Origin: an uncultured Acidobacteriota bacterium
Lineage (GTDB): Bacteria > Acidobacteriota > Vicinamibacteria > Vicinamibacterales > UBA8438
Direction: 5' to 3'
Length of the DNA: 64,000 nt
Assembly (NCBI GenBank): GCA_913043225.1
Contig: CAJWLU010000015.1
Coordinates: 10,193-74,192, forward strand
Of this stretch, positions 48,001-54,000 are shown piece by piece. Each line of letters starts with the position of its first letter. Within the stretch, counting starts at the first letter, position 1. Position numbers: made by a program.

Positions 48001-51000
48001 GTTGTCGCCGCTCGATCTCAGCACCGCCACGGTGGGTGTCGGCGAGGTCGCCGTCACGGTCGGGTTCACGCCGCGTCGCATTCTGGTCGGGATGCTGGGC
48101 GAGCGACCCGTGTATCGCTTGGCGGGATCGGGCGGCTGGACCACCGTCTTTGCCGATACCGGTGAACAGCTGGACGGTTTGAGCCGAGAGGGAGCGCTGG
48201 GGGTGGCACGGCAGTTCGCGCCCGAGCACGCCGACACGGCTACCTACGACCGTCGTATGGTCGAGCCCGACCAGTGGACGTTGCAGAGCCTGGCGTTCTT
48301 CCCGCTCCACCGGATCACTCTGAACGATCCAGCCGGGACCGTACTGTATGTGTCTGAGCCGACGGCCGAGCCGGTGATGCGGACCACCAGCGCGGCTCGC
48401 CGCTGGGCCTACGCCGGCGCGGTGCTGCACTGGTTGTACTTCACACCGCTCCGGGCGAACGTGGGGCTCTGGAGCAACGTTGTCATCTGGCTCTCGATCT
48501 TCGGGTGTCTTCTCTGTCTGTCGGGAGTGGTGATCGGTTTACTGACTCTGGGAACGCGCGGGCACCGCTTCGCTAGTCCGTACTCCGGTCTGATGCGCTG
48601 GCATCACTATGCCGGTCTCGTGTTTGGTCTGGTTACCTTCACCTGGACCTTCAGCGGTGCGCTGTCGATGGAGCCCTGGAGCTGGCATCCAGGCACCGAG
48701 CCGCGGCGGAGTCAGGCCGAGGTCGTCGCGGGGGGGCTCCCCCGGCTCGGTGTGCTGACACCGCCCCACCTGCGGGCAGGCCTCGAGGTGTTAGCGGACG
48801 GCTTTCGTGCTCGTGAGATCGACGTGCTTCACTTTTTGGGGGTGCCCTACGGACTGGCGCTCGACCCGACGCCGCTCGGCGAGATGTCCGGCCTGCCGAA
48901 CACCCTCGCGCCGCTCGGGCAACATGGGCCCCGTCAGCGGTTGGTGGCGTTGGATGGGCGCGCGCCGGCCGCGTTCGAACGTTTCGAGGCCGACGCCTTC
49001 TCGGCGCTCCCCGAGGCGGTCATGCCCGGGGTGCGTGTCCTTGACCAGACCTGGCTACGGACCTACGACAACTACTACTACGATCGCGGTGGGCGGCGGC
49101 GGTTACCCGTCCTGCGGGTGCGCTACGACGATCCCCAGCAGACCTGGCTTTACTTCGACCCGTATCGAGGATCGATTGTAAGGAAAGAAGAGCGCTCGAC
49201 CCGGATCAATCGCTGGCTCTACCACGGTCTGCACAGCCTGGACTTCCCGTTCCTTTATGGCCACCGGCCGCTCTGGGACATTGTGGTTGTCGTGCTGAGC
49301 CTCGGCGGCATCGCGGTGAGCGTCACCCCGATCCGGCAAGGGTGGCGGCGGGTCCTGAGGCACGCGGTTCGATTGGTCGGGCGATGACGCGGCGTTCGAA
49401 CAGGCTCTTCCTTGACCAGTGCGAGCCGGCGAGGTAGACTCCGCGTCACCGTTTCGAACGGTGCACCCCGGCCAGTGAGTCCTTGGGCTCTCCCGGGTGA
49501 TGTATGCCGGTGGGCGGTTTCGGTTCAGCTGGCCACGTAGGCTGAACCCGCTTGGGTTGACTAGGGAGAAAGCTAGCGGATGCTACGGGAGTTGTTTGAG
49601 TGGGTCGAGGCGTTTCCCAGCAGTTTGTCGCTGCGCGAGTCGCTCAACGGTTACGTCTACTGCTTGACGGCCCACGTCGCCAGCATGGGGCTGGTGGCCG
49701 GTCTCATTGGCTTCTGGGATATGCGGCTGGCTGGGCTGGCGCTACGCGGAATCCGGGTCACGAAGGTGCAGTCTGGCCTGTTTCCCTTGATGTTCGTGGG
49801 ACTGGGAATCAACGCCATTACCGGAATCCTGATGGTGTACGCGCAGCCGATGCGCTACTATCCTAACTTCTGGTTTTGGATGAAGATGGGGATGTTGGTG
49901 GTTGTGGCCGTGAATGCAGCCTACTTCCACATGAATATCGAGAAGAGCGTCGACAAGTGGGACAGCGATCCGATCGCACCGCTCCAGGCTCGTGTGGCGG
50001 GTTACGTGTCGCTCGCCTTCTGGTTCGGGATCATCGCCACCGGTCGCATGGTCGCCTACAGCGGGTTAGTCCCGCAGTGGTGGCTCGACCTGGGGCTGGG
50101 GTCGTAGTCTGATGTTGCAACCGTTCTTCGAGTGGATGCAGGGGCTCAGATTTAGTGCCTTCTTCCTGGAGTCTGTCTGGCCCACCCCGATCGTTCAGGT
50201 GATCCATCTGAGCACCGTTGCACTCTTCATCGGCTCGGTGCTAGTCGTGGATCTTCGGCTGCTGGGGCGAGGGCTGATTGACCAATCAATTTCGGAGCTC
50301 ACCAGGAAGGTGCAGCCGTTCCTGCTCTGGAGCTTTGTGGTGCTCGTGCTCACCGGTATCCCCCAGATGTCGTCCACGGCGCTGAAGCAGTACTACAGCC
50401 CGTTCTTCTGGTGGAAGATGGGGATGGTGTTCTTCGGACTGATCGTCACGTTCGGGGTGCGCCGATACATTGCGTCGAAGGAGGAAGGGTACTTCGGTCT
50501 TGTGTGGCCGAAAGTGATTGGTCTGACGTCGATAGCGCTCTGGACGAGTGTGACCATCGGCGCCCGGCTGATCGGATTGTTGTCATAGGAGCAAGGTGAC
50601 GTCGGTGGTCCGGGCCGTTTCGCTGTGAGACGGGCGGGCCAGTTAAGGACACGCGCGTGGCGTGAGGGAGACATAGCACAATGCGAAATCGGCTCAAGAC
50701 CACGATGATTGCTGGCGCGACGGCGGCCGTGCTGGCCGTCGGCTTCACGCTGGCGCCCCAGACAGTGGAGGGGCAGGATGGCTATCGCGCCCCCCGCACC
50801 GCCGATGGCCAGCCTGACCTGAACGGGATCTGGCAGGCACTCGGCGCCCAACACTACGATATCGAACCGCATGCCGCGCGCTTCGGTCCCGTGGTGGAGA
50901 TGGCGGCCCACGGGGCGATCCCCGCCGGGCTCGGCATCGTCGAGGGCGGCGAGATTCCGTATCGTCCGGAAGCTCGGGCCCAGCAGCAGGAGAACCTCAA

Positions 51001-54000
51001 TTTCTGGCTGGAGCGTGACCCGGCCACCAAGTGCTACATGCCCGGGATTCCGCGGGCGAACTACATGCCCTATCCGTTCCAGTTGGTGCAGACGCCCGAG
51101 TACGTGCTCTTCGCGTACGAGTTCGCGAGCGCGAGCCGGATCGTCTACATGGACCGCCCCGACTTCGAGGCGCCGGTCGATTCCTGGATGGGTCACAATA
51201 TCGGTCGATGGGAGGGTGAAAGCCTGGTCATCGACGTGACTGCCCAGATGCCGGACACCTGGTTCGATATGTCAGGCAACCACCACAGCGTGAACATGGC
51301 TGTGGAGGAGCGCTGGACTGCTCTCAGCGAAAACCACCTGATGTATGAGGCGACCATCACCGACGATGAGATCTTCACGCGGCCTTGGACGATCCGGATG
51401 CCGATGTATCGCCGCATCGACGAGAACATGCAGCTGCTCGAGTACAAGTGCGTCGAGTTCGCCGAGGAGCTGATGTACGGCCATCTGCGGAAGGATCCGG
51501 ACCTGACCCCCGTCTTCCGGGCCAGCGGATATGGCTCCGATCGCGAGATCGTGCTCGAGCCGCCGCAGTAGTTGTAGTAGTCAGTTTGCACCGGGCCATG
51601 GTACCCATACTGCCGTGGCCCGGTGTTGACGAATCCACCGCAATGGGTGATAATGCTGGAAAAGTTTGCTCACACCGAGGAGGCATAGCCGAATGCGAAG
51701 AAATATAGCCGTTGTCGTGGCCGGAGTTGTCATGGCGCTGGCCACTGTACCGGTGGTCGCGCATCATGCATTTTCGGCAGAGTTCGATGCCAATCGCCCC
51801 ATCCACCTTGAAGGCACCGTGGTGAAGATGGAGTGGATCAACCCCCACGCTTGGGTGCATCTGGAGCTTGAAGATGGGACCGTGTGGATGGTCGAGGGCG
51901 GCACGCCCAACACCCTTCTGCGCCGCGGTTTCACCAAGAACTCGCTGCTGCCAGGCACTAAGATCATCGTCGACGGTTACCAGGCGAAGGACGGGTCGGA
52001 AAAGGGTAATGGCCGTGACCTGACCTTCGAAGATGGTCGGAAACTGTTCATGGGGTCATCCGGCACCGGCGCGCCGAGAGACGGTCGCGACGCCACCGAG
52101 CCGAATTAAGCCCCGCTCGGCGTAACGTATCGAAGAGCCCGGATGCATCTGCGTCCGGGCTTTTCTTTTTTGGAGCGACCTTCCACCTGACTGGCCAGGC
52201 AGGTGACCGGTCGGGGAGCTCTGAGACGTTTCGAGGTATGCACGCAGCCCTCAGCGCCCCGTTGCAGGGCCGCGCCTGCCGTGTCAGAGTCTTGGGGGAG
52301 ATTCAGAATGGCATTAAAGACGCCTGCGGAGTACGTCGACAGCTTGCGCGATCTAAGCATCCGTGCCTACGTGAACGGAGAGCGGATCGAGAGCGTCGCC
52401 GATCACCCGTCCATCGCGCCGCACATCAACACCGTGGCGAAGACCTACGAGCTGGCCCATGACCCGGAGCACCGGGACGTGATGACCGCAGAGAGTCACC
52501 TCACGGGTGAGCGCATCCATAGGTATACCCACATCTTCCACAGTGCCGACGATCTCGTGAAGAAGATCCAGATGCTGCGGCTGCTGGGGCAGGTCACGGG
52601 CACCTGCTTTCAGCGGTGTGTCGGTCTCGATGCCCTCAATGCGCTCTACGCCATCACCTACGAGATCGATGAGAAGGAGGGCACTACCTACCACCGGCGC
52701 TTCTGCGATTATCTGACCGGCGTGCAGCGCGCCGACCTGATGCTGGCCGGCGCCATGACCGATCCCAAGGGGCACCGGGCCAAGCGGCCTAGCCAGCAGG
52801 ATGATCCAGACCAGTTCGTTCGGGTGGTCGAACGTCGGGACGACGGGGTGGTTATCCGGGGAGCGAAGCTGCATAACACCGGAGGCATCAACTCCCACGA
52901 GGTTCTTGTCATGCCGGGCACTGGGCTATCGGACGAAGAGTCCGACTATGCCGTGGCGTGCGCGGTGCCGGCCAATGCCGACGGCGTGCTCTTCATCTTC
53001 GGTCGGCAGTCGAACGACAACCGGAAGCTGGAGGGGGGCTGTGACATCGGCAACCCCCGGTTCGGGGTGGTGGGCGGCGAAGCCATGGTGGTATTTGACG
53101 ACGTGTTCGTGCCGAACGAGCGCGTGTTTATGAACGGCGAGGCCAAGTACGCCGGCACCATGGTGAATTACTTCGCCACGTGGCACCGTGCCAACTATGG
53201 CGGGTGCAAGGGAGGCAACGCCGACGTCCTGATCGGCGCGACCGCCAAGATGACCAAGGTGTTGGGCACCGAACGGAACTCGGTGGTGCGCGACAAGCTG
53301 ACCGAGATGATCCACATGAACGAGACCACCTATGCCTCGGCCATTGGGGCCAGCGCCATGGGTTACGCACTACCTTGCGGCGCCTACATGGTCGACCCGA
53401 TGATGGCCAATACTGTGAAGCAGAACATCACCCGGAACGTCTACCAGATCGGCCGATTGAGTCACGACCTTGCGGGCGGGTTCCTCGCCACCATGCCAGG
53501 CGAGCAGTCGTTTGATAATCCCGAGATTGCGCGATTCGTTGAGAAGTATCATCAGGCCAATCCGGAGTACCAGACCCGCGAGCGGGTTAAGCTCGGGCGG
53601 TACATCGAGAATATGACCAGCGTGACCACGATGGTCGAAGCGATGCATGGCGCGGGTTCACCACAGGCCCAGCGGATTGTCATGCTGGGGCAGGCGGATA
53701 TCGACAAGAAGATCGAGATGGCTGAGCAGGTCATCGACGGCGACGACGATGTGAATGGGCTTCCCTTGCCAGGAAAGCGCCAGCCAGCGGAGGTGGAGGG
53801 ATAGACGGCGGAGATGTGCAAACGACGAGCCTGGTTTCTGGCCTTTTGGCTGGCCATCCCCATGCCGGGGTTGGCCCAAACGGACACACGCAGCACAACC
53901 GACATCGCCCGCCCGTCCTCGCCCGACCCTGATCGCTGGCGACTACAGCTGGTCGGGGGGGTCTTTCGCGAAGCCTGGGATATGAACGCCTCGCGTGAGC

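Follow-up and report, generated by a model that had tools for sequence, protein, structure and literature searches.

DUF6152 is an exported OB-fold protein with two histidines at the tip of its predicted mature form. Its most probable role, shared with the genes that travel with it, would be the handling of a metal in the cell envelope, copper for instance. In the window (the whole stretch of 64,000 nucleotides that was analysed), its gene is preceded by those of a calycin barrel, F88, and two DUF6644 membrane proteins. Two further families are newly assigned to the module: a class II c-type cytochrome as one of its members, and a PepSY_TM haem reductase, which either joins it or appears in loci without the DUF6644 pair. 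What the analysis shows is the export signal, the folds, the conservation, the linkage of the genes, their phyletic co-occurrence and their presence in RNA libraries. A literature search for DUF6152, DUF6644, PF19649 and PF20349 found no paper naming any of them, as the preliminary description had already stated for DUF6152.

Gene order and transcripts

The two DUF6644 genes, F88 and DUF6152 follow each other on the plus strand from 49580 to 52109, with a strong terminator at the end (Table 1). Marine RNA-library contigs from three studies span these four genes and bridge all three junctions; their farthest reach is position 52051. The promoter-like sites are weak evidence, as they are no commoner than in shuffled sequences (two found, 1.6 expected).

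Table 1. Features of the DUF6152 locus, in positions of the window
Feature	Position	Strand	Remarks
Class II (cytochrome c'-like) c-type cytochrome	47052..47537	+	probable lipoprotein; C-terminal CNNCH
PepSY_TM membrane protein	47807..49387	+	Pfam 28.9 bits (cut-off 28.8)
Promoter-like site upstream of DUF6644a	49412..49440	+	9/12 consensus matches
DUF6644 'a' subunit	49580..50107	+	Pfam E 3e-7; 4 predicted TM helices
DUF6644 'b' subunit, paralogue of 'a'	50112..50588	+	Pfam E 8.3e-15; starts 4 bases past 'a'
F88 short-form calycin barrel, 296 aa	50681..51571	+	exported; conserved Cys118/Cys257; Pfam-less
Promoter-like site upstream of DUF6152	51626..51654	+	10/12 consensus matches; weak
DUF6152	51693-52109 (alternative start 51666)	+	Pfam E 3.6e-30; OB fold
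DUF6152 signal peptide	51693-51761	+	ends ...VPVVA; predicted mature start His-His at 51762
Intrinsic-terminator-like hairpin	52132..52165	+	15-bp stem, T run; 23 bases past DUF6152 stop

The His-His tip of DUF6152

The genome has six DUF6152 matches, each above the Pfam cut-off, and in all six a hydrophobic leader is followed by His-His, as in the earlier view of an exported, His-His-tipped protein. The claim that all six leaders end in A-x-A stands only in a relaxed form: five leaders have A at position -1 and the sixth has G, position -3 is A, A, V, V, A and I, so the strict motif is present in only three, whereas a small/aliphatic -3/-1 rule is satisfied by all six. Across the family, the criterion of HH 26 residues before NPH and a leader of at least 15 residues selects 101 of 150 representatives, all with a small residue at -1 (A 89, G 10, S 1, T 1) ahead of His-His; 94 of these 101 have a hydrophobic leader core. 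The other 47 representatives are fragments, frameshifts or repeat forms. In a set of 20 copies from relatives, chosen among the most divergent, the leader directly before HH is kept in 19 and the xPH motif also in 19.

An alignment of 51 sequences, numbered from mature His1, has four invariant residues (H1, P28, H29, G65) and nine that are at least 90% conserved (H2, D9, N27, W42, E45, P49, L52, R54, G56). H58, previously given as at least 90% conserved, corresponds to H33 in this numbering and is only the majority residue. No conserved Met was seen in the alignment. The structures matched by the AF2 model (pLDDT 87.5) are OB folds only, with a best Foldseek E-value of 1.3e-3 and VIA Z scores from 9.0 (rmsd 2.8, 78 aligned) down to 7.3.

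Longer DUF6152 proteins were considered as possible fusions and rejected as gene-call run-ons: 23 have an internal HH, 17 of these have an intact hydrophobic signal core (score >2) ahead of it and most of the 17 show a Met start too. None of the longer proteins checked proved to be a true fusion with a buried HH. Of ten internal or repeat domains read, nine lack HH and seven of these nine also lack His29; this joint loss suggests that HH and His29 form part of one small site. The tandem protein P0209 retains an internal W-HH, and a free amino terminus may therefore not be obligatory.

We propose that DUF6152 is exported by the Sec pathway and that signal-peptide cleavage would expose His1-His2. 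These two residues, the invariant Pro28-His29 hairpin and Asp9/Glu45 would most probably make up a mononuclear metal site, similar to a histidine brace or an N-terminal Xaa-His motif. Copper would be the best guess for the metal: Cu(II) is the ion that an N-terminal His should preferentially chelate, and every known histidine-brace protein is secreted (PMC10952591). LPMOs, PmoB and X325/Bim1 are likewise cleaved directly before a conserved His and have a further invariant His available (PMC10952591). However, DUF6152 has no sequence or fold relation to histidine-brace proteins, and with about 115 residues it is much smaller than the histidine-brace copper proteins. A parallel outside the protein itself is that some LPMO systems have dedicated cytochrome electron donors. 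Another small periplasmic OB-fold protein is CusF, a Cu(I)/Ag(I) chaperone with the divergent two-component system cusRS alongside, and a heavy-metal-type two-component system likewise diverges from one DUF6152 copy of the genome (contig C10). Unlike CusF, DUF6152 has no conserved Met, CusF is absent from the 50 best structural matches listed by VIA, and we know of no N-terminal His-His in CusF.

Calycin and membrane partners

For the 296-aa F88 protein no Pfam or NCBIfam family was found, even at E<=10. All 50 VIA matches listed for its AF2 model (pLDDT 74.2 overall, about 90 in the core) are calycin-type barrels, with Z from 8.8 (rmsd 3.5, 118 aligned) to 4.8. The genome has 88 F88-family ORFs, which gives a random gene a chance of 0.045 of having an F88 neighbour; five of the six DUF6152 genes have one within 300 bp (binomial P for at least five 1.1e-6), in agreement with the association described before. 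Among 77 related DUF6152 loci, F88 is present in 73 and lies directly upstream on the same strand in 67; the 77 loci and the 151 genomes described below fall in about five families and are phylogenetically clustered, so these counts overstate independence. The ESM-Atlas lead, a DUF6152 cluster among the neighbours of F88, was reproduced with 89 members rather than 459.

Another reading is that DUF6152 has no metal site. The His-His tip could instead ligate haem, a tetrapyrrole or another cofactor carried by the calycin, or DUF6152 could be a non-catalytic OB-fold adaptor or chaperone for F88. Haem-binding calycins are indeed among the F88 matches (nitrobindin, Z 6.8 and 6.4; a haemophore, Z 5.4), haem proteins are abundant in the module, and in protein P0204 DUF6152-like repeats without HH make up the periplasmic part, so the scaffold can serve other roles; the N-terminal half of P0204 is transmembrane and presumably resembles BlaR1/M56 sensors. 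However, a residue invariant exactly at the cleavage site is the hallmark of N-terminal amine chemistry, HH and His29 are lost together, and F88 offers no invariant His or Met that would complete a haem site. This explanation is quite unlikely.

DUF6644 is a frequent partner of DUF6152, as had been proposed: in a sample of 151 genomes of the phylum, 15 have DUF6644 and 14 have DUF6152, which never occurs there without DUF6644, and 12 of the 14 carry the two at most about 2.2 kb apart. The subunits a and b are paralogues (hhalign E 7e-40) and mostly encoded as tandem pairs in the genomes examined; His32 (TM1) and Lys102 (TM3) of subunit a are invariant over 89 sequences. The likeness of DUF6644 to the CopD core is weak: hhalign gives E 1.1e-3 over 106 columns with a probability of 21% (reversed decoy E 0.31), with the invariant His, Gly, Gly and Lys of both families aligned, Pfam DUF2214 matches DUF6644 proteins at about 2e-3, and neither protein has a Pfam CopD match at E<=10. 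A separate canonical CopD is encoded elsewhere in the genome.

The arrangement resembles CopC-CopD, YobA-YebZ-YebY and YcnI-YcnJ, in which a small secreted beta protein with a conserved mature N-terminal His is encoded beside a polytopic membrane protein, in the case of CopD with the same His/Gly/Gly/Lys pattern in a 4-TM core; additional periplasmic partners of unknown role (YebY, YcnI) are found there too. It differs in that DUF6152 has an OB fold in place of the cupredoxin or Ig-like sandwich, has two N-terminal His instead of one, and comes with two separate 4-TM proteins, CopD having eight TM helices. The module proteins also fall outside Pfam CopC and CopD, a c-type cytochrome and calycin barrels are core partners, and there are many copies per genome.

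Cytochrome, reductase and genomic context

The preliminary description had defined the module as DUF6152, calycin and DUF6644, a linkage that holds, and had missed the cytochrome as a core member. The cytochrome stays below the cut-off of Pfam Cytochrom_C_2 (E 0.0047), but a profile of 21 homologues matches solved cytochromes c'/class II (best E 2.4e-6); M39 in the first helix region, C140, C143 and H144 are invariant and the lipobox Cys18 is at least 90% conserved. Homologues are present in 36 of the 77 loci, and in 25 of 35 loci the cytochrome lies at most 700 bp from DUF6644 or has only PepSY_TM in between. The PepSY_TM protein, just above its Pfam cut-off, belongs to a superfamily of haem-dependent periplasmic metal reductases. 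Its orthologues lie between the cytochrome and DUF6644a in six close relatives, a second PepSY_TM (E 1e-56) adjoins an F88-DUF6152 pair on contig C5 of the same genome, and this locus and one other (L041) have cytochrome, PepSY_TM, F88 and DUF6152 without DUF6644.

In PMC13038864, PepSY_TM proteins are described as haem-mediated periplasmic ferrisiderophore reductases, and one of them, CrpH, as a proposed copper reducer. Reduction of a chelated metal in the periplasm before transfer is a common theme of PepSY_TM/TonB systems (PMC13038864; PMC12914433). The PepSY_TM genes in the window's module and at C5 recall FoxB and CrpH/CrtA; in contrast to these, the module here has no TonB-dependent receptor, and descriptions of those systems do not include DUF6152, F88 or DUF6644.

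We suggest that DUF6152 is a small metal subunit or acceptor for the exported F88 barrels encoded just upstream, and that the pair would be served by a membrane-linked electron and/or metal path. This path would consist of the lipoprotein cytochrome and of either a DUF6644 heterodimer (two CopD-core-like 4-TM proteins with a single His and a single Lys apiece close to the periplasmic face) or the PepSY_TM reductase, or both as in this window. The metal may arrive on an organic ligand held by the calycin and be reduced by cytochrome c or PepSY_TM; the His-His tip would capture the reduced metal and pass it to, or cycle it with, the DUF6644 pair. Cytochrome, PepSY_TM, CopD likeness and the heavy-metal-type two-component neighbour give indirect support to a metal or redox theme; metal binding, metal identity, electron flow and physical contacts are our inferences. 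As a whole, this reading is our tentative preference.

The two-component system diverging from the lone C10 copy has cztR_silR_copR (222.9 bits) and cztS_silS_copS (244.8) as best NCBIfam families, both below their cut-offs (279.2 and 292.55), with the next family at 173.5. Its orthologues flank DUF6152 arrays in three genomes (G110, G044, G073) and are found in 4 of the 77 loci; the linkage was observed in Vicinamibacterales alone. Cop/Pco operons are under copper-responsive two-component systems (PMC8689200; PMC8424229). With the same architecture, the His-His tip and Asp/Glu might bind Fe(II/III), Ni(II), Co(II) or Zn(II) instead, for example iron that the PepSY_TM reductase frees from ferrisiderophores. 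Ferrisiderophores are the substrates of known PepSY_TM members (PMC13038864), a TonB-dependent receptor and a FecCD permease are encoded near the C10 copy, a ligand set of His, His, His and Asp/Glu is not copper-specific, and the cztS/silS/copS family also covers Zn, Cd and Co sensors. A metal other than copper is nevertheless quite unlikely: in an N-terminal His chelate, Cu(II) is the metal favoured by the Irving-Williams series (PMC10952591), published work ties the CopD-like partner to copper (PMC8424229; PMC8689200), and neither a Fur-type nor a Zur-type regulator was seen next to the module. Against the copper reading, no copper-specific gene (CopA, CopZ, Cus, multicopper oxidase) is among the recurrent module neighbours.

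These neighbours are PQQ dehydrogenases, NHL/SGL propellers, MBL hydrolases and glyoxalase-fold proteins, a set that looks like periplasmic catabolism. F88 and DUF6152 could form a catalytic periplasmic redox enzyme and not a metal carrier. In this reading an organic substrate would be bound by the calycin, the His-His metal centre would oxidise or oxygenate it, and the cytochrome with DUF6644ab or PepSY_TM would donate or accept electrons, linking the enzyme to the respiratory chain. The paralogue expansion (88 F88 ORFs and six DUF6152 here, within a range of 6 to 30 DUF6152 copies per genome that peaks in relative G122) fits such an enzyme. The preliminary description had missed these copy numbers; up to 30 DUF6152 and 88 F88 copies lie far above what metallochaperones have and suit a simple metal-delivery chaperone poorly. 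PQQ dehydrogenases adjoin three of the genome's six DUF6152 loci and 18 of the 77; in a gammaproteobacterial MAG, DUF6644 pairs adjoin a dihaem cytochrome c with a PQQ dehydrogenase, and in a Holophagales MAG they adjoin a fusion of PQQ dehydrogenase and cytochrome c. Two long ORFs on contig C3 (574 and 606 aa) combine F88-like and glyoxalase-fold domains. There are oxygenases among the histidine-brace proteins (PMC10952591), but oxygenases built on an OB fold are not known, neither catalytic residues nor a substrate were identified for F88-DUF6152, and the heavy-metal-type two-component neighbour points to metal sensing; we consider an enzyme unlikely.

A single-copy core is found in other Acidobacteriota families and is new here: in the three loci fetched from single-copy genomes, compared for the module families, F88-F88-DUF6152 faces cyt c-DUF6644a-DUF6644b.

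Gene content and extent of the module

The window unites all parts of the module, a cytochrome c, a PepSY_TM protein, a DUF6644 pair, F88 and DUF6152, on one strand. By the names of its close matches, the organism belongs to the Vicinamibacterales (Acidobacteriota).

Module genes of the window and the hairpin that follows them, with the basis of each assignment
Feature	Position in the window	Strand	Basis
Lipoprotein-type cytochrome, C-terminal CNNCH	47052-47537	+	Pfam cytochrome c' E 0.0047, below cut-off
PepSY_TM protein	47807-49387	+	Pfam 28.9 bits, cut-off 28.8 (borderline)
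DUF6644 (a)	49580-50107	+	Pfam E 3e-7
DUF6644 (b)	50112-50588	+	Pfam E 8.3e-15
F88, exported, 296 residues	50681-51571	+	no Pfam or NCBIfam match even at E<=10
DUF6152 (PF19649)	51693-52109	+	Pfam E 3.6e-30, 104.4 bits, cut-off 27
Hairpin, 15-bp stem and T run	52132-52165	+	starts 23 bases past the DUF6152 stop

The HpaB-like gene at 52203-53804 is not counted as part of the module: the hairpin resembles a strong terminator and intervenes between this gene and DUF6152, so the gene is taken as a separate unit. An Rfam scan of the window gave no hit, neither to riboswitches nor to other RNA families. From 54549-56340 onward, a gene for a VWA-domain protein (Pfam) is followed by two ORFs of 308 and 861 amino acids that resemble an ABC ATPase and a large permease (putative); near the module in related loci, an ABC_tran cluster is found in 21 loci and a smaller FtsX/MacB_PCD cluster in 6.

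The preliminary description had limited the module to three families, DUF6152, F88 and DUF6644. Comparison of 77 related loci, mostly from Acidobacteriota but with two gammaproteobacterial MAGs, shows that it is larger and that a class II cytochrome c and PepSY_TM join it. These loci were retrieved with a single protein as query and are thus biased to close relatives; single-linkage clustering of neighbouring ORFs gave one giant cluster, and only the smaller clusters were used. F88 is present in 73 of the 77 loci and lies directly upstream of DUF6152 on the same strand in 67. The DUF6644 pair is found in 35 loci and a homologue of the window's cytochrome in 36; in 25 of the 35 DUF6644 loci the cytochrome is at most 700 bp away from DUF6644 or parted from it by PepSY_TM alone. 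PepSY_TM either accompanies the module or occurs where the DUF6644 pair is absent: a second contig of the same genome (C5; 193.4 bits for PF03929) and the related locus L041 both have cytochrome c, PepSY_TM, F88 and DUF6152.

A profile built from 21 of these cytochromes, searched against solved structures, matched cytochromes of the c'/class II type (best E 2.4e-6, 27 chains with E<1e-3). Within the window-type cytochromes, a Met and the CxxCH motif are invariant and the lipobox Cys is conserved. By these features the protein is classed as a class II cytochrome c, with a single-sequence Pfam score below the cut-off, and from the invariant Met we infer a Met-His haem of the electron-transfer type. 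There are two subtypes (2921-3520 and 5309-5857 in related locus L007): subtype 1 accompanies PepSY_TM, as in the window, and subtype 2 is directly upstream of DUF6644a and has an extra conserved Cys at its end. A close relative of the window has both.

Across 151 genomes sampled evenly from the phylum, DUF6152 is present in 14 genomes and DUF6644 in 15 (13 above the cut-off). All 14 DUF6152 genomes also have DUF6644, with both genes within about 2.2 kb in 12 of them. In each of the six genomes that have a single DUF6152 gene and a single DUF6644 pair, these lie next to each other; the three single-copy loci that were fetched all have the arrangement F88-F88-DUF6152 facing cytochrome c-DUF6644a-DUF6644b. 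As the DUF6152 genomes span about five families, these counts reflect few independent events.

The N-terminus and fold of DUF6152

All six DUF6152 genes of the genome score above the Pfam cut-off, and the earlier observation of a His-His after the leader in every one of them was borne out: each protein has a hydrophobic leader and then His-His. In the whole family, 9,896 representatives (clusters at 50% identity) reach E<=1e-3, and 101 of the best 150 have HH exactly 26 residues N-terminal of the NPH motif, after a leader of at least 15 residues. These 101 leaders have A (89), G (10), S (1) or T (1) at position -1 and A, V, L, I, T, G, M or S at position -3, and 94 have a clear hydrophobic core. 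Judged by the -3/-1 rule and the hydrophobic core (94 to 101 of the 101 leaders; six of six paralogues), His is the predicted first residue of mature DUF6152. Another 47 representatives are N-terminal fragments, frameshifted calls or repeat proteins. Of 20 copies chosen among the lowest-scoring ones in related genomes, 19 have HH after a leader and 19 have xPH; the exception has an internal duplication of 30 residues. Locus L148 (G110:C1:4602850-4603550) encodes an orthologue of the DUF6152 on contig C10 with an in-frame N-terminal duplication of about 30 residues: copy 1 has Asn-His after the leader and copy 2 an internal His-His.

An alignment of 51 sequences, numbered from the first His of the predicted mature protein, has four invariant residues (H1, P28, H29 and G65) and nine that are conserved to at least 90% (H2, D9, N27, W42, E45, P49, L52, R54 and G56). 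The predicted fold of the mature protein (pLDDT 87.5) has OB domains as its only structural matches, with both Foldseek (best E 1.3e-3) and VIA (Z 9.0, rmsd 2.8, 78 aligned residues, to Z 7.3), as the preliminary description had stated; Z scores in this middling range speak for the OB fold, a closed barrel of five strands, and not for homology. A profile search against solved structures found no related sequence (best E 0.33). CusF is absent among the 50 best structural matches listed; the two may nevertheless be related. Mature DUF6152 matched only the DUF6152 family at E<=10, not CopC (PF04234), and its predicted fold is OB and not a beta-sandwich.

With the gene order F88 to DUF6152, a simple fusion would bury the His-His. 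Among 48 longer DUF6152 proteins examined for fusion, 23 have an internal HH, preceded by an intact hydrophobic signal core in 17, most of them with a visible Met start; the remaining ones with internal HH have no hydrophobic leader and look mostly frameshifted. True F88-DUF6152 fusions were therefore rejected, these forms being gene-call run-ons, and no genuine fusion concealing HH was found among the 48 proteins. Genuine multi-domain forms do occur: nine out of ten internal or repeat domains inspected have no HH, and in seven of these nine His29 is gone too. This joint loss suggests that H1/H2 and H29 make up a single site. One internal domain (P0209) retains W-HH, and a free amine may thus not be absolutely required.

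The F88 calycins and the DUF6644 membrane pair

That F88 genes lie beside five of the six DUF6152 genes was likewise found here, with an F88 paralogue at a distance of at most 300 bp in each case. The genome has 88 F88-family ORFs, so the chance of an F88 neighbour for a random gene is 0.045, which gives P ~1.1e-6 for F88 beside at least five of six DUF6152 genes. The predicted F88 fold (pLDDT 74.2, about 90 in the core) matches calycin-type barrels in all 50 VIA matches listed (Z 8.8 to 4.8), and FABP/CRBP with Foldseek (E 2.9e-3). The G-x-W motif is a calycin signature, and the conserved 'NGIWQ' of F88 provides it at the N-terminus. Predicted to form a closed antiparallel barrel like FABP, lipocalin and nitrobindin, F88 is thus placed in the calycin superfamily. 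A profile search against solved structures found no sequence relative, and no Pfam model covers the F88 members scanned. When F88 (residues 33-265) and mature DUF6152 were modelled as a complex, the score was 0.00 (mark 0.32), a result that neither supports nor opposes binding.

F88 is hugely expanded in this 3.85-Mb genome, mostly as a long form of 320-390 residues that has a Cys pair and a conserved 'EYACHEGN' at its end, and only seven of the 88 ORFs are beside DUF6152 genes. One further copy is in the window, at about 6095-6475 (+). At locus L122 on contig C3, tandem ORFs of 574 and 606 residues (8792-12264) downstream of an F88-DUF6152 pair combine glyoxalase-fold domains with a region matching F88; directly upstream is an aldehyde oxidase/xanthine dehydrogenase-type trio (Fer2, MoCoBD, FAD_binding_5).

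DUF6644 proteins occur mostly in tandem pairs, and hhalign shows DUF6644a and DUF6644b to be paralogues of each other (E 7e-40). Eight residues are invariant in 89 sequences: H32, G41, D47, R49, G52, G82, F99 and K102. H32 and K102 are predicted to be near the periplasmic face, from a reading of hydrophobicity and the positive-inside rule. When aligned with 21 CopD sequences of the phylum, DUF6644 reached E 1.1e-3 (hhalign, probability 21%, 106 columns; reversed decoy E 0.31), and the invariant His, two Gly and the Lys coincide with CopD's own. This likeness is a lead and not a membership: at E<=10, CopD (PF05425) is not among the Pfam matches of DUF6644 proteins, which include DUF2214 (E about 2e-3) and DUF4149 (E 4.2). 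No DUF2214 match above the family cut-off was found in the 151 genomes, so that a bridge from DUF6644 via DUF2214 to CopD could not be built, and an Atlas search for named relatives of DUF6644b returned none that was usable. Equally, a haem b at the interface of the dimer could be bound through the one His that each subunit offers. Elsewhere in the genome (L143, G000:C9:108500-119500), a second DUF6644 pair has neither DUF6152 nor a class II cytochrome nearby; beside it are a putative cyclase, a PSCyt/PSD protein of the DUF1592 family that carries a cytochrome c domain, and DUF1552.

Possible metal binding, possible functions and expression

The sixth DUF6152 copy, on contig C10 (L124, G000:C10:80500-97000, at about 7958-10588), has no F88 and is divergent from a two-component system. 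The best NCBIfam matches of this system are the heavy-metal families TIGR01386 and TIGR01387 (CopRS/CusRS type), with scores below the cut-offs (244.8 versus 292.55 and 222.9 versus 279.2 bits; next kinase family 173.5). Orthologues of the system are beside DUF6152 arrays in three related genomes (G110, G044 and G073), the array of G044 running on into F88, DUF6644ab and cytochromes; the same system is present in 4 of the 77 loci. Next along the C10 locus are genes for a TonB-dependent receptor and a FecCD permease.

PepSY_TM proteins are described as haem-dependent enzymes that reduce ferrisiderophores in the periplasm, and copper reduction has been proposed for CrpH (PMC13038864); according to another paper, Cu(II) is the ion that an N-terminal His should chelate by preference, and the known brace proteins are all secreted (PMC10952591). 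The nearest systems described are CopC/CopD and YcnI/YcnJ (PMC8689200; PMC8424229). We count the two-component neighbour of the heavy-metal type, PepSY_TM, the N-terminal His and the likeness to CopC/CopD-type systems as metal clues. They are consistent with a model that we favour only tentatively: exported DUF6152 would pair with F88 in the periplasm and be the metal-binding tip of this pair, the pair would be served by cytochrome c together with the DUF6644 pair or PepSY_TM, and copper would be the best guess for the metal. A tip that holds some other metal appears improbable to us, and a role that involves no metal at all slightly more so.

Several clues count against DUF6152 being a plain chaperone. 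This genome has six copies besides its 88 F88 ORFs, a related one (G122) has up to 30 DUF6152 copies, and long ORFs combine F88-like and glyoxalase-fold domains. PQQ dehydrogenases are beside three of the six DUF6152 loci of the genome and in 18 of the 77 loci; DUF6644 pairs of unrelated lineages adjoin a PQQ dehydrogenase and a dihaem cytochrome c, and others a PQQ-dehydrogenase-cytochrome fusion. Furthermore, a canonical CopD is encoded elsewhere in the genome, and the recurrent neighbours of the module include no copper-specific resistance gene. The CopD homologue (817-1827 of L091, G000:C2:265690-268983) has a Pfam E of 1.6e-19, and its 79 bits for NCBIfam copper_CopD are below the cut-off.

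The module could instead be a catalytic redox enzyme, which we consider unlikely. Less likely is that F88-DUF6152 pairs represent a novel and very large class of copper oxygenases or oxidoreductases, each made of two periplasmic proteins: the OB-fold subunit would carry a histidine-brace-like His-His copper centre, organic substrates would be held in the calycin barrel, and power would come from a chain of their own, in which class II cytochrome c is joined by either a CopD-like DUF6644 heterodimer or PepSY_TM. If true, this would account for why bacteria that break down refractory organic matter in sea and soil have dozens of paralogues.

For the preferred model of a metal-binding tip, copper at the His-His would mean that an OB fold carries a histidine-brace-type site for the first time, and CopD-like membrane proteins would gain a new model system with simple genetics and an explicit electron donor. 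Four families travel together, DUF6152, DUF6644, the still unnamed F88 calycins and the class II cytochrome c dedicated to the module, and none is known to have been studied experimentally; a search of freely accessible literature found no paper naming these families.

Contigs of four RNA runs do not cover 47452-49291 (PepSY_TM) or 52052-52235, which is not evidence of silence. In marine RNA libraries from three studies, contigs cover DUF6644a, DUF6644b, F88 and DUF6152 and bridge the three junctions between them; DNA carry-over may contribute, and the bridging is no proof of a single transcript. The genes are found in marine RNA libraries of abundant uncultured Acidobacteriota, and the module may therefore matter for the turnover of trace metals or organic matter at sea.
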